A DNA stretch of 15,760 bases from Candidatus Heimdallarchaeota archaeon (GCA_030668875.1 DAOVER010000059.1:1-15760), one strand, 5' to 3'. Positions 1 to 13,978 are shown, counted from the stretch's first letter. Program-made: numbers and translations. Notes: generated by a model from the sequence alone, not told the origin.

Positions 1-135
1 TGTCGGAGTAAATGCGCACTCCCTTCCTTCCTTCCCCAATCATGATCCTCATGATTCTTCCCCTCAACGCACGTGAGGGGACCCACTTAAACGACGGTTA
101 AACCGCCTCTGGCAAGTTTAACCAAGTTTCATAAC
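1..135. mobile_element. Terminus of an unidentified structured non-coding insertion (IS end, guide-RNA-like or intron-like) interrupting upp; continues beyond the left edge
   Basis: 66/130 nt are G+C (51%) versus 38/120 (32%) at 181-300. Four stems: 5-9/18-22, 38-45/49-56, 60-66/74-80 and 96-103/116-123 (the last extendable by 89-92/126-129). UPRT similarity stops abruptly at about 131-136, with an in-frame TAA at 119-121. No transposase or other element-encoded ORF is visible, so the class is inferred. The junction lies somewhere in 129-136. Confidence 0.45.
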
Positions 136-709
136 GTGCGTTCCAATAGACTTTAGATTAAACTTAAGGAGATTAGGTAATTTCTTGGCTTTTGAAGCTG
201 CAAAACATCTGGACTCTAAGACTAGTAGAGTTCAAACTCCTTTAGGTAAAGCAAAATATGAAAAACTAGTCGACAATATTGTTATCATTTCTATTTTAAG
301 AGCAGCTTTACCGATGTCTGATGGAGTTCTTGAAACGCTCCCAGATGCTTCCTTGGGAGTAATATCAGCTTCAAGAGGAAAAAAACTTCTGGATGATGGA
401 AAAGATTTCAGGATAGATTGTACTTATACAAATATACCTTACTTAGAAGATAACATTGTGGTGATAGTAGATCCAATGCTCGCAAGCGGATCCACTTTAC
501 TTTTCTTACTTAAACAAATTGAGAATCAAAAACCTAAGAAAATCATTATTCTTTGTGCAATAGCATCACAATATGGTATAGAAAGAATAGAGAAACACAA
601 TTCTGATGTCATTATAATTGCAGGAGACGTTGACTCGATTCTCAATGAAAAAGGATATATTATTCCTGGACTCGGTGATGCAGGCGATAGGGCTTTCAAC
701 ACTTCATAG
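131..709 (+). CDS. upp: Uracil phosphoribosyltransferase, N-terminally truncated/interrupted reading frame
   Basis: Motifs ILRAALPM, PRPP-binding VIVDPMLASGST and C-terminal GYIIPGLGDAGDRAF. The frame extends upstream of the TTG at 185 as ITCVPIDFRLNLRRLGNFLAFEA, matching the conserved FRxxLxRLGxxLAYE helix. The usual first ~20-25 residues (HPL...LRD) are absent, and there is no in-frame ATG/GTG between TAA 119-121 and 185. Confidence 0.9.
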   Translation: MTCVPIDFRLNLRRLGNFLAFEAAKHLDSKTSRVQTPLGKAKYEKLVDNIVIISILRAALPMSDGVLETLPDASLGVISASRGKKLLDDGKDFRIDCTYTNIPYLEDNIVVIVDPMLASGSTLLFLLKQIENQKPKKIIILCAIASQYGIERIEKHNSDVIIIAGDVDSILNEKGYIIPGLGDAGDRAFNTS

Positions 710-729
710 CTTTAACTATCAATCTGTCA

Positions 730-780
730 GTTTTGTACAGTTTTTTTATTGGTTTTTTCCAATTAATTTACTCTTTTCTT
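730..780 (+). terminator. T-rich putative archaeal terminator after upp
   Basis: Several oligo-T runs (ttttg, tttttttatt, ggttttttcc) 20-70 nt after the upp stop codon. Confidence 0.4.
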
Positions 781-793
781 AAGAATTACAATC

Positions 794-801
794 TTTATAA
801 A
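794..801 (+). promoter_or_regulatory. TATA box of the ABC exporter operon (probably leaderless)
   Basis: TTTATAAA ends 22 nt before ATG 824; no SD motif is evident. Confidence 0.55.
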
Positions 802-823
802 TGCTCTTTAATACCCGAACTGC

Positions 824-2641
824 ATGAAGGTTCCACTTCAGAAATATTGGGAAGTACAGAAAAAGTACTTAGCACCTTTCAAAGGAAAGCTTGTGCTATT
901 GACTATCCTATTGATTAGTGGAACCGCGCTGCAGATTTTTACTCCTTTGGTAATTGAAAGTTACATTGATCTAGCAACTCAGGAAACGGTGAATCAGAGT
1001 CTTAGTACATTCCTCAATATCATTGGGATTCCAGTACCAAATGTGGGAAATATATTCGCAACTCTCATAATATTAGCGTCAATCTATACCGCCTTAATGC
1101 TTATTCAACAAGCTATTTCCTTAGGGTCTGTTTATGTTAATCAGAACCTTTCATGGTCTTCAACAAATAAACTGCGTCAGGATTTAACTCAACATTGTGT
1201 AGATTTGGATATGACCTTTCATAATGAACACAAACCTGGTGAGATGATAGAAAGAATTGATGGTGATGTGAACACTTTGGCACAGTTTCTTTCAACATTT
1301 TCAGTACAGCTTCTGACATCCATTTTACTCATCGTTGGTGTTCTAATAACTTTCTTTACAAAACATTGGATACTAGGTGTGTGTTTCACTGTATTCACTC
1401 TCTTGGCGATTGTCATCATGTATATCTTGAGGAACTTCTCAGTTAAAGCATGGGAGGAACAAAGACAAACAAGTGCAGATATGTTTGGTACAATCGAGGA
1501 AAGTCTAAGTGCCATAGAAGACATAAAAGCAAATGGTGGTGTTAGAAATGCAATGCGTAAGTTTTTCGATTACTCAAGGAAGGACTTCAAAGCTTGGAAA
1601 AAAGCTCTACTCAGAGGGCAATTATTTGTGATGGCGATTTGGGGCGTCATTGCAATAATCAACACATTGGTTTTTGCTCCAAGTATCCCTCTATTGGAAA
1701 ATGATATTATATCACTTGGTACAGTGTTTCTGATTCAGATTTACGCAGGACTTTTGCTGAGACCAATATTTGTTATTACACGGCAGATGCAAGACCTCCA
1801 ACGAGCAGGTGCTTCAATAGATAGAATTAACAAGTTATTTGACACAAAGAAAAAAATACTGGACACAGGAATAGAGAAACTTTCTTCTGGACCATTGGAA
1901 ATTGAATTCAACAAGTTGAATTTCGCTTACAATGAGGACAATTATGTACTCAATGATATTTCGTTCAAACTTTATCCCGGAAAAACACTTGGGATTCTTG
2001 GTCATACTGGGAGTGGTAAAACCACCATTTCAAGATTACTGTTCCGCTTATATGATCCTAAACCAGATGATGGTGAAATTTTACTGAACAGCATCAAAAT
2101 TAAAGATATACCACTAGAAGATTTGAGAGACAGAATCTCCTATGTAACTCAGAGTGTGGAATTATTCCAAGCATCCGTAAGGGAAAATGTAACATTATTC
2201 GATGACCGGGTTTCAGATGAGAAAATTACCTCCATACTAAATGATATTGGTTTGGATGATTGGTTTTCAAAACTCCCAGAAGGGTTAGATACAATCATCT
2301 CATCTAGTGAACATGGGATATCTGCTGGGGAAGCACAACTACTGGCCCTAGCTCGTGTTTTCATTAAAAGCCCTAACCTGGTTGTTCTGGATGAAGCTTC
2401 ATCTAGATTGGATCCTGTCACTGAAAATCTACTAGATGCTGCGATCGAGAAACTTCTGATAAACAGAACAGGGATAATTATTGCACATCGATTAGCCACT
2501 TTGGAAAAGGTTGATGACATTCTAATAATTGATAAAGGAAACATAATGGAATATGGTAAAAGAGAAGATCTAGCGAATGATCATGATACACAATTTTACC
2601 GTCTCCTACAGACTGGAGAGATAGAGGAGTTGTTAAGATGA
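824..2641 (+). CDS. ABC exporter subunit 1 (TMD-NBD half transporter, MdlB/MsbA-like)
   Basis: N-terminal hydrophobic helices and the GEMIERIDGD coupling region; Walker A GHTGSGKTT; degenerate signature ISAGEAQ; Walker B VVLDEASS; H-loop IAH. Confidence 0.93.
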   Translation: MKVPLQKYWEVQKKYLAPFKGKLVLLTILLISGTALQIFTPLVIESYIDLATQETVNQSLSTFLNIIGIPVPNVGNIFATLIILASIYTALMLIQQAISLGSVYVNQNLSWSSTNKLRQDLTQHCVDLDMTFHNEHKPGEMIERIDGDVNTLAQFLSTFSVQLLTSILLIVGVLITFFTKHWILGVCFTVFTLLAIVIMYILRNFSVKAWEEQRQTSADMFGTIEESLSAIEDIKANGGVRNAMRKFFDYSRKDFKAWKKALLRGQLFVMAIWGVIAIINTLVFAPSIPLLENDIISLGTVFLIQIYAGLLLRPIFVITRQMQDLQRAGASIDRINKLFDTKKKILDTGIEKLSSGPLEIEFNKLNFAYNEDNYVLNDISFKLYPGKTLGILGHTGSGKTTISRLLFRLYDPKPDDGEILLNSIKIKDIPLEDLRDRISYVTQSVELFQASVRENVTLFDDRVSDEKITSILNDIGLDDWFSKLPEGLDTIISSSEHGISAGEAQLLALARVFIKSPNLVVLDEASSRLDPVTENLLDAAIEKLLINRTGIIIAHRLATLEKVDDILIIDKGNIMEYGKREDLANDHDTQFYRLLQTGEIEELLR

Positions 2642-4452
2642 AAGTCATGAGAATATCTTGGGAGATGTTGAAGTACAAACCAGGATTGGTTATCGGAGGC
2701 TTCCTATCTGACATACTATTCTTCCTCCAACCTCTTGCAGCTGGTCTGATAACACGTGAAATCTTCAACCAACTTCAAGGAACTGCAGGTTGGAACATAA
2801 GCATCAACATTTGGGTTCTTGTGTTATTAGTACTTCCAATAACTTTGACCATGAGACTAATAGGAGATTTTATCTTTGTCTTCACGATGTGGATATTCAT
2901 TTTAATGGGCAGGATACTGCTCAGGAAAAATATGTTGGATGGAATCTTCAAAAAACTAGGAGCTGTAGCACTACCAGATTCATCAGGAGAGGCTGTCTCA
3001 CGATTCAGAGGAGATATTGAAGAAACCATGTGGTTTGTCTACCGTCTCACAGCACTTATAAGCTTAGGAATATTCACAGGCACATCATTTTTCATTATGC
3101 AAAGCATCAACTGGGAGATTACTCTTTACGTTAGCATTCCTCTTGCGGTTATGATGATACTTGTATTCTTTACACGTCCGATTTTTACAAGATTACGAAA
3201 ACAACGTAGAAAAGCTGCGGGAGCTGTTACGCGAACAATTGGTGAGATTTTCAGATCCGTACAATCTATCAAAGTAGCAACAGCAGAAGACAATGTGTTA
3301 AAGTATTTTGGAGAAATTAACGATAAAAGACGTATAGCTGAAGTGAAAGATGAATTCTTTCACAGACTCCTACATTCAATATATTATTCAACCATCTATC
3401 TAGGTATAGGAATTATTCTCTTACTAGTTGGAAGTAATCTTCAAAATAACACATTTTCAGTTGGTGACCTAGCATTCTTTGTAGGTGTTCTTGGAGAAAT
3501 GGGTGAGTTCATCTGGGACATAGGCGAAATAGTTCCACGTTATGTTCGCACCAAAGTATCACTAGGTAGAATGTTTAAACTCATAAAGAGTGAAGATGAA
3601 GATGTTACAGAATTGGATCTTGCAAAACATGGTGAGATATACATAAAGGAGCCATATCCTTCAATTCAAATGGCAAGTTTAGACGCAACAGATAAGCTTA
3701 GGAATTTTGAAGTGAAGGGTTTAACTTACACATATCCAGATTCAACTAAAGGAATAAATGACATTAATTTTACAATAAACAAAGGCACTTTCACAGTTAT
3801 AACAGGAAGGATTGGATCTGGAAAAACAACACTTCTTCGTGCAATTCTGGGGTTATTACCAAATGATGATGGTGGTCTTTACTGGAATGGGAAGATAGTT
3901 GAGAAACCAGAAGATTTCTTTATTCCTCCAAGAACCGCATATACTTCGCAAGTCCCTAGATTATTTAGCGAAACTATCAAAGAAAATATTTTAATGGGAC
4001 TTCCTGAAGAATCTGTAGATGTTGAGGGATCACTTGAATTAGCAGTAATCAAAAAAGAAGTAGAAGAGTTTGATGATAGTCTGGATACATTAATTGGTCC
4101 AAAAGGTGTCAAGTTATCCGGAGGTCAAAGACAAAGACTAGCTTCAGCCAGAATGTTTGCTCGAAATTCAGAGATTCTAGTTTTTGATGACTTATCTTCA
4201 GCTCTAGATGTTGAGACTGAACAACTTCTTTGGAAAAGAGTCTTTGCAAGGGAAGGGTCCACTTGCCTAGCTGTGTCGCACCGTCCTATTGCTTTGAGAA
4301 GAGCAGATAATATTATTGTAATAAAAGATGGTGAAATTACAGGTCAAGGAAAGTTGGAACATTTACTTGAAACTTGTGATGAAATGAAAAGATTGTGGGA
4401 AGAAAAAATATTGGGTACTACTCAAACTACAGTTTCAGGTCAAACAGATTAA
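2638..4452 (+). CDS. ABC exporter subunit 2 (TMD-NBD half transporter)
   Basis: ATGA overlap with the upstream gene. Walker A GRIGSGKTT; canonical signature LSGGQRQ; Walker B LVFDDLSS (catalytic E replaced by D); H-loop VSH. Confidence 0.93.
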   Translation: MKVMRISWEMLKYKPGLVIGGFLSDILFFLQPLAAGLITREIFNQLQGTAGWNISINIWVLVLLVLPITLTMRLIGDFIFVFTMWIFILMGRILLRKNMLDGIFKKLGAVALPDSSGEAVSRFRGDIEETMWFVYRLTALISLGIFTGTSFFIMQSINWEITLYVSIPLAVMMILVFFTRPIFTRLRKQRRKAAGAVTRTIGEIFRSVQSIKVATAEDNVLKYFGEINDKRRIAEVKDEFFHRLLHSIYYSTIYLGIGIILLLVGSNLQNNTFSVGDLAFFVGVLGEMGEFIWDIGEIVPRYVRTKVSLGRMFKLIKSEDEDVTELDLAKHGEIYIKEPYPSIQMASLDATDKLRNFEVKGLTYTYPDSTKGINDINFTINKGTFTVITGRIGSGKTTLLRAILGLLPNDDGGLYWNGKIVEKPEDFFIPPRTAYTSQVPRLFSETIKENILMGLPEESVDVEGSLELAVIKKEVEEFDDSLDTLIGPKGVKLSGGQRQRLASARMFARNSEILVFDDLSSALDVETEQLLWKRVFAREGSTCLAVSHRPIALRRADNIIVIKDGEITGQGKLEHLLETCDEMKRLWEEKILGTTQTTVSGQTD

Positions 4453-13874: not shown

Positions 13875-13978
13875 TGGTGGGGACTGGGTGATTTGAACAC
13901 CCGACCAATTGGTTTTGCCGACATTGTTAAACAATGTTCTCTGGAGCCAACCACTCTACCGGACTGAGCCAAGTCCCC
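13875..13978 (-). tRNA. trnW: tRNA-Trp(CCA) with a 27-nt intron at 37/38 (13914-13940) and encoded 3'-CCA
   Basis: Acceptor GGGGACT/AGTCCCC+A+CCA; D arm GCTC/GAGT; anticodon stem GTTGG/CCAAT with CT-CCA-G; T arm GGGTG-TTCAAAT-CACCC. The mature tRNA is 77 nt. Confidence 0.95.

Follow-up and report, generated by a model that had tools for sequence, protein, structure and literature searches.

The window analysed here, that is the whole 15,760-nt stretch of DNA, is contig C49 of a Candidatus Heimdallarchaeota assembly of 99 contigs (3.23 Mb, 92% complete). Its first 141 nt have a GC content of 50.4%, against 35.7% in the rest of the window and 33.8% in the genome. They adjoin the 3' part of upp, the gene for uracil phosphoribosyltransferase (UPRT; positions 142-709, + strand), which is severed from its first ~26 codons. 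The UPRT frame matches PF14681 (E 7.7e-39) over profile positions 35-206; it has a stop codon at 119-121 and no ATG, GTG or TTG before position 185. Directly downstream of upp, at 824-4452 (+), lie two adjacent ORFs of ~605 aa that look by eye like ordinary ABC exporters, with the Walker A sequences GHTGSGKT and GRIGSGKT. A tRNA gene whose anticodon loop contains a 31-nt intron is found on the - strand at 13878-13978 (54.3 bits with Rfam), which fits an archaeon; ARAGORN, run in bacterial mode, found no tRNA, missing this one.

A repeated element within upp

The sequence-only reading of this DNA had proposed that a foreign, structured, non-coding element of ~51% GC interrupts upp and replaces its N-terminus, and had called for a search for further copies. 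The interruption and the loss of the N-terminus are both borne out. BLAST comparison of window 1-141 with the organism's own genome revealed 25 further occurrences (87-100% identity), many of the 26 right ends being located at contig ends. All 26 stop at the base matching window 141 (...CATAACGTGCGT, GTGCGT). The base that follows is T in 13 copies, A in nine, C in two and G in two, and the flanks differ in every copy and are unrelated. A common end followed by a variable base means that positions 134-141 belong to the element and that only T142 is flank. The boundary thus falls at 141|142 and not at 129-136, where it had been placed, and the stretch 134-142, formerly taken for upp coding sequence, is element in 26 of 26 copies up to its penultimate base.

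About 17 of the 26 right ends, along with some 13-14 left ends, define a subfamily of small elements, with ~15-18 copies that are 96-100% identical to one another. Extension of the internal copies yields a 401-bp unit, which starts with ACCGTTAGCAAC and ends with CATAACGTGCGT. The full copy, C95:100420-100820, contains no ORF longer than ~30 aa. The contig begins inside such a repeat, and window 1-141 (+ strand) represents the right-hand 141 nt (element 261-401) of this ORF-less, non-autonomous element, which we assign below to the IS607 type.

The missing 5' part of upp, which the earlier reading had also suggested looking for, was found at the end of contig C15, where L010:608-676 encodes MWENASNNNVIISEIISKLRDKN and abuts the left end of the element. 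C15:82676-82915 corresponds to element 1-240 and the window to element 261-401. Since both halves are peculiar to the small element, a single 401-bp copy, inserted in the same sense as the gene, joins C15 to C49. Intact orthologues from genomes of the same genus read ...LRDKNTVP(T/K)DFR..., and a 92%-identical orthologue has gataaaaacACCGTtccaaaagat at the insertion site. In an independent cold-seep metagenome (run X6), contigs that are ~94-95% identical begin to match at position 139 and carry before the match GATTATAAGCAAATTAAGAGATAAAAACAC; 29 of its 30 bases agree with the C15 flank followed by AC. The element-upp junction itself is present, with zero differences, in one contig of run X1, from the likely source study. 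Contig 16 of run X4, also from the likely source study, matches the window from 139 (window 139-900); the 26 letters on its left side are unaligned, and it may represent the empty upp allele, present alongside the insertion.

The empty site reads ...AAAAACACCGT|TCCAATAG... (AAAAACACCGT|TCCAA in the orthologue and X6) and the occupied site AAAAAC-ACCGT-TAGC...GTGCGT-TCCAA, with 396 nt added and a left junction of ..AAAAAC ACCGT TAGCAAC. From the empty site in the orthologues and in X6 it follows that the left-junction ACCGT derives from the target. The two junctions have just CGT in common. There is no target-site duplication, and positions 139-141 (no strand assigned), shared by the right end and the target and ending at the 141|142 boundary, are the likely crossover region; crossover at a short shared motif is characteristic of IS607 elements. 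ACCGT is found at the left junction in 13 of 13 small-element copies examined and also in six autonomous relatives; left ends in relatives were clear in 7 of 30 loci, the low-scoring remainder being ignored. Being invariant at left junctions and also found in the empty site, ACCGT is a candidate TAM-like target motif, with GT or CGT as the probable crossover. One relative whose right end is ...TGT has ACTGT at the left junction. In this relative (L030, G016:C28), ACTGT goes together with a right end of ...GTGTGT, the other relatives having ACCGT with ...GTGCGT; the base before GT seems here, in a single case, to change jointly at both junctions and in the pseudoknot described below.

A search of the organism's own genome (G000) found no second upp, so that the assembled strain is without an intact UPRT gene. 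The upp of this organism is therefore a transposon-disrupted gene split over two contigs, and neither a short UPRT nor an intron-bearing one. The thought that the element might be spliceable fares badly against Rfam. No group I or group II intron or other family matches the full element (L011) or the autonomous element (L009) at E<=1, and the covariance models detect neither a domain V nor a P3-P9 core. At gathering thresholds, the whole window returns nothing besides the intron-containing tRNA, far from the element. When window 1-400 was searched at E<=10, nothing appeared in the element; matches to SNORD69, PyrG-leader and SraG, all inside upp and with E>=1, were taken as chance. Archaeal bulge-helix-bulge splicing from the upp mRNA was rejected upon inspection of both junctions, as no sequence complementary to the end of the 5' exon (GAUAAAAAC) lies immediately within the 3' exon.

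The autonomous relative and its TnpB-like protein

Autonomous relatives of the element measure ~2.7 kb and are exemplified by L009:623-3350. The first 39 nt of the 401-bp element share 77% identity with the left end of the latter (ACCGTAGTCAAC...), positions 113-152 of the 401-bp element are similar to its tnpA-tnpB spacer, and window 56-141, a core of 86 nt, is 97.7% identical to its right end (L009:3265-3350). Clear homology of the small element to autonomous right ends is confined to window 56 onward. These likenesses of left end, right end and spacer argue that the 401-bp unit, which is short, multicopy and protein-less and has its ends in common with the autonomous element, is an internal-deletion, MITE-like derivative of an IS607-type element.

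The assignment to the IS607 type comes from the two genes that lie on the same strand between the left end at 623 and the right end at 3350. The first, tnpA (L009:715-1305), encodes a 196-aa serine recombinase with an N-terminal MerR-like HTH (PF00376, E 1.9e-13; Resolvase PF00239, E 1.3e-21); the second, tnpB (L009:1345-3261, that is G000:C48:36844-38760), encodes a 638-aa protein. A MerR-plus-Resolvase ORF upstream of a TnpB-like ORF constitutes an IS607 gene pair. The sequence-only reading had recommended looking for a transposase or a reverse transcriptase and had surmised that the element belongs to an RNA-guided mobile-element system. The surmise is upheld by the TnpB-like gene of the autonomous relative; as to the enzymes it named, the domain search of that relative found no DEDD or Y1 transposase and no reverse transcriptase, but a serine recombinase with TnpB instead. 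The genome contains intact tnpA and tnpB genes accompanied by the same right end, the elements on contigs C48 and C37 being uninterrupted. The tnpB of C87 carries one in-frame TAG. At G000:C15:~30730-31483, the 86-nt right end comes immediately after a tnpA (219-aa frame), with no tnpB in between; this locus is a tnpB-deleted derivative of the same IS607-type element.

The C-terminus of the TnpB-like protein resembles PF07282 (Cas12f1-like TNB, zinc-ribbon) with an E-value of 2.5e-5 and 24.8 bits, just below the 26.3 cutoff. A phmmer comparison with the PDB matched TnpB and Cas12f chains, the best being 8hr5_A (E 1.8e-5). The protein is ~200 aa longer than usual, with ~430 residues before RuvC-I, and it departs from the RuvC-III signature (A/R)DxNAAxNI in having His for Asp (NTHTNAAHNI, versus NADYNAARNI in 8hr5_A). 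This His is conserved across the TnpB-like clade down to ~30% identity and results in a D-E-H triad. Because His replaces the RuvC-III Asp, we regard the 638-aa protein as a TnpB-like homologue whose nuclease activity is not assured. D-to-H branches of TnpB have been described and are thought possibly active (PMC10691335). All relatives of the gene that turned up in the public genome collection carry the label Candidatus Heimdallarchaeota or come from MAGs labelled uncultured archaeon.

The 86-nt core (window 56-141, + strand) common to the autonomous elements sits directly 3' of the stop codon of a 638-644-aa ORF ending ...PCRKCGQRVNTHTNAAHNIASL, and is kept beside TnpB homologues in the same order. 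These properties single it out as the probable conserved part of a reRNA/omegaRNA scaffold.

The helix between loop and right end

The feature that had drawn attention to this locus is the hairpin CCCCTCA-ACGCACG-TGAGGGG at 60-80 (7-bp stem, 60-66/74-80). It is present as described, and positions 66-74 are indeed the exact reverse complement of 134-142, the sole 9-nt reverse-complement pair within 1-142. Non-overlapping pairs of this kind arose in 95 of 5000 shuffles of the 142 nt, so that the complementarity alone is unusual, not decisive. The + strand folds better than shuffles (z -4.1).

The significance of the pairing emerges from an alignment (A1) of 45 right ends that adjoin TnpB homologues of 29-100% identity and come from the same order. 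Stem-loop 1 (59-81, + strand; stem 60-65/75-80, extendable to 59-66/74-81) belongs to the RNAalifold consensus and is paired in 97.8% of cells, two of its pairs showing double-sided changes. Its loop holds the 5' strand of a second helix, CGCACGT (68-74, +), which covaries with the 3' strand ACGTGCG (134-140, +) just before the element boundary. For 67-74 with 134-141, 84.7% of cells are paired and 7 of 8 pairs display double-sided changes; each of the seven pairs 68-74:134-140 is kept in 40-42 of the 45 sequences, six of the seven with double-sided changes. Covariation as strong as that observed was obtained in 0 of 500 shuffles, and sliding the partner by 1-3 columns lowers pairing to 33-56%. 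Conservation does not extend to the outermost pairs, 66:142 and 67:141 (the latter is unpaired in 28 of 45 sequences), and the helix is thus 68-74 with 134-140. Variants of loop and 3' end include ACGCTCG/CGAGCG, ATGCACG/CGTGCAT, ACACACG/CGTGTGT and CACATGC/GCATGTG and, in a clade of ~40% identity, CGCATAC/GTATGCG, CGCATGT/ACATGCG and CACATAC/GTATGTG. Exceptions are L034, L044 and L045, which keep only ~4 pseudoknot pairs, and four members with a 1-nt bulge.

These data bear directly on the idea that the loop chooses the target, acting as a target or donor guide by pairing with the junction in the manner of an IS110/IS1111 bridge or seek RNA, of EBS1 of a group II intron (EBS/IBS pairing), or of an IS200/IS605 DNA guide. 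The exact 9-nt complementarity, whose last base (142) is flank, and the terminal CGT common to element and target speak for such a role. However, the loop is the same in 26 of 26 copies whose flanks are unrelated and so does not covary with the flank of each copy, an outcome that the sequence-only reading had itself named as fatal to its proposal. The partner strand lies inside the element, among its own last bases, and covaries with the loop, and pair 67:141 is dispensed with in more than half of the sequences. The IS110/IS1111 combination of a DEDD gene and flank-complementary loops is replaced by an invariant loop and a relative that encodes a serine recombinase and TnpB, with no DEDD, Y1 or reverse transcriptase gene, and neither an intron nor any other Rfam family is recognized at E<=1. 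We give target choice by the loop next to no credence.

A second possibility is that the two segments are inverted binding motifs for TnpA, the serine recombinase, in the DNA, and covary to fit one protein. IS607-family ends carry short repeated recognition motifs, one arm of the helix is the very terminus where recombination happens, and L030 combines an ACTGT left junction with a TGT right end. The pattern of changes argues for RNA instead. G:U pairs occur in the pseudoknot helix (four at 69:139 and one at each of two other pairs); such changes keep an RNA helix and break a DNA motif. The G-U pairs of this helix and of the 96-103/116-123 stem are compatible with the + strand only. Moreover, the motif is wholly different between clades (ACGCACG versus CGCATAC) and still self-complementary. 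For the IS607 element ISXfa1, experiments have tested this arrangement as an RNA pseudoknot: ~5 nt flanking the guide pair with the apical loop of stem-loop 1 of the reRNA, and the pseudoknot is required for activity (Yoon et al. 2023, PMC10711439). It is also visible in the structure of the ISDra2 omegaRNA (Nakagawa et al. 2023, PMC10097598), in which bases -5..-3 pair with an upstream loop and the pseudoknot stacks on stem 1, a feature conserved in Cas12 guide RNAs. Paired protein-binding motifs in the DNA are, in our opinion, a quite improbable explanation.

We therefore return to the RNA pseudoknot. The 86-nt scaffold extends from just past the tnpB stop codon to the boundary of the repeat, and the bases that would flank the guide pair with the apical loop of a hairpin further upstream (68-74:134-140), in the same place as in the ISDra2 and ISXfa1 RNAs. 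Judged from these correspondences, the loop complementarity is the known guide-adjacent pseudoknot of a TnpB omega/reRNA and would have no part in target choice. Its geometry appears to be that of an ordinary H-type pseudoknot: the stem has 6 bp, loop bases 66 and 67 are unpaired, and the second helix has 7 bp. Between the two pseudoknot strands, a helix (89-92/126-129) encloses the stem-loop 96-103/116-123 (together 89-129, + strand) in the RNAalifold consensus of 23 close relatives, which have compensatory changes at 96:123, 99:120, 102:117 and 103:116.

The 5' portion of the window element behaves differently from the conserved core. A hairpin at 38-56 (+; stem 38-45/49-56), predicted by MFE folding only, is peculiar to the non-autonomous element and has no counterpart in autonomous ends. 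The MFE fold pairs 136-141 with 14-19 instead of with the loop of stem-loop 1; as a conserved partner, 14-19 was rejected, the autonomous copies being without that 5' segment. GCGCAC (13-19) can pair with GTGCGT (136-141), a competing helix peculiar to the small element. Known TnpB guide-RNA scaffolds are 116-190 nt long. Because homology begins at position 56, the 401-bp element may lack the scaffold's 5' part or have another sequence in its stead, and the RNA of the upp copy could be non-functional.

Some right ends of the wider family have noteworthy flanks. In eight members of the ~40%-identity clade (L036, L050-L052, L054-L056 and L058), the pseudoknot strand GTATGCGA is followed by similar sequence, for example CGCATAGCCGCTTTGCTAA; in L034, L044 and L045, the right end is followed by GGAACGGATG. 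tRNA-like T-arm sequences are found near the right flanks of this TnpB clade. Either the elements of the ~40% clade extend further than assumed, or one conserved target is used.

Relation to known systems and proposed working

Taken together, we consider it very probable (about 0.88) that a 401-bp protein-less IS607 derivative is inserted in upp of this Candidatus Heimdallarchaeota archaeon, that window 1-141 is its right end, and that its 86-nt core is a TnpB guide-RNA scaffold with a 68-74:134-140 pseudoknot. The closest parallels are the reRNAs of other IS607 elements, ISXfa1 and ISFba1, the RAGATH-18 reRNA of the latter being an IS607-family TnpB reRNA (PMC11061315). Like these, the predicted RNA maps to the 3' end of tnpB together with the transposon right end; it has stem-loops followed by a pseudoknot between an apical loop and guide-flanking bases, and its predicted guide comes from the DNA past the right end. 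The element shares with IS607 elements the serine recombinase partner and insertion at a short motif common to ends and target. It differs from IS607 reRNAs in having no sequence or Rfam match to them, and from ISXfa1 in its 7-bp pseudoknot (versus ~5) and its (C)GT junction after ACC, the ISXfa1 junction motif being GG (PMC10711439). Also unlike known IS607 systems are the 638-aa protein with a D-E-H rather than a D-E-D RuvC signature, the Asgard archaeon host, and the location of the RNA module on a protein-less derivative.

Analogies can be drawn with three other systems. The scaffold of the ISDra2 omegaRNA likewise ends at the transposon boundary, and its bases -6..-2 pair with an upstream loop, stacking on the stem. 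ISDra2 is, however, an IS200/IS605 element with a Y1 HUH TnpA, single-stranded DNA peel-and-paste transposition and a TTGAT TAM, and has no sequence similarity to the present element. Protein-less PATEs often encode omegaRNAs for use in trans (Meers et al., 10.1101/2023.03.14.532601). As in PATEs, the 401-bp element is short and multicopy, keeps both ends and the guide-RNA module, and would depend on TnpA and TnpB in trans; PATEs, in contrast, derive from Y1-transposase elements with subterminal DNA hairpins, whereas the parent here is a serine-recombinase IS607-type element. With IS110/IS1111 bridge (seek) RNAs the element has in common a non-coding RNA, here predicted, at the transposon end and loops that base-pair. 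The loops of bridge RNAs recognize target and donor DNA by base-pairing, in partnership with a DEDD recombinase; in the present element, the loop has its pairing partner in the 3' part of the same RNA and does not vary with the flanks, and no DEDD gene is associated.

One could envision the following mode of action, in which transcription, loading in trans, guided cleavage and the use of TnpA in trans are modelled on known TnpB, IS605 and IS607 biology. The + strand would be transcribed, possibly by read-through from upp, the element being in sense orientation within the gene. The 86 nt would supply the 3' part of the scaffold, made up of stem-loop 1 (59-81), the nested helix and stem-loop (89-129) and the 7-bp H-type pseudoknot. 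The pseudoknot would set the scaffold directly beside the guide. The guide would be the DNA after the right end, here upp from position 142; a segment of ~16-20 nt, a length assumed from known TnpB systems, is predicted at 142-161 (+; upp codons) from its place directly 3' of the scaffold end. The RNA would be loaded in trans by the TnpB-like protein from intact copies such as those on C48 and C37, and guided cleavage of the unoccupied upp allele (ACCGT+TCCAATAG...) would favour retention of the element. Movement of the element would rely on TnpA, also supplied in trans, with crossover at the (C)GT common to ends and target.

It is also worth considering that the copy is an inert fossil, the decayed remnant of an IS607 element with an inherited but unused guide-RNA module, and that the disruption of upp is neutral or a selected knockout. 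The restriction of clear homology with autonomous ends to 86 nt is in keeping with decay, and UPRT is a dispensable salvage enzyme. On the other hand, the ~15-18 copies that are 96-100% identical point to recent spread, intact TnpA and TnpB genes with the same right end reside in the genome, and the empty site persists in strains 94-95% identical over the region, implying that the insertion is young. On balance we find an inert fossil unlikely. Returning to the guide-RNA reading, it is tempting to speculate, though we regard the proposal as tentative and rather doubtful in its full extent, that the protein-less 401-bp element may carry a working guide-RNA module. The RNA would be made by read-through from the host gene, here upp, and loaded in trans by the oversized D-E-H TnpB-like proteins of sister elements, such that dozens of small elements would each programme a shared effector against their own empty sites, or would repress them if the His variant binds without cutting.

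By analogy with the PATEs of IS200/IS605, the present element would be a protein-less IS607-family derivative with a TnpB reRNA module, comparable to their omegaRNA-bearing forms. A striking signal linking a loop to an insertion junction is settled, on this reading, as a standard TnpB guide-RNA pseudoknot, and a reRNA scaffold supported by covariation becomes available for a little-studied Asgard lineage of TnpB-like proteins that are large and of the His type. Where the studied IS607 elements have GG, the present ones have ACCGT, of which GT or CGT is shared, as candidate motif for TAM and crossover, and the natural pair of occupied and empty upp alleles defines the insertion to the base.
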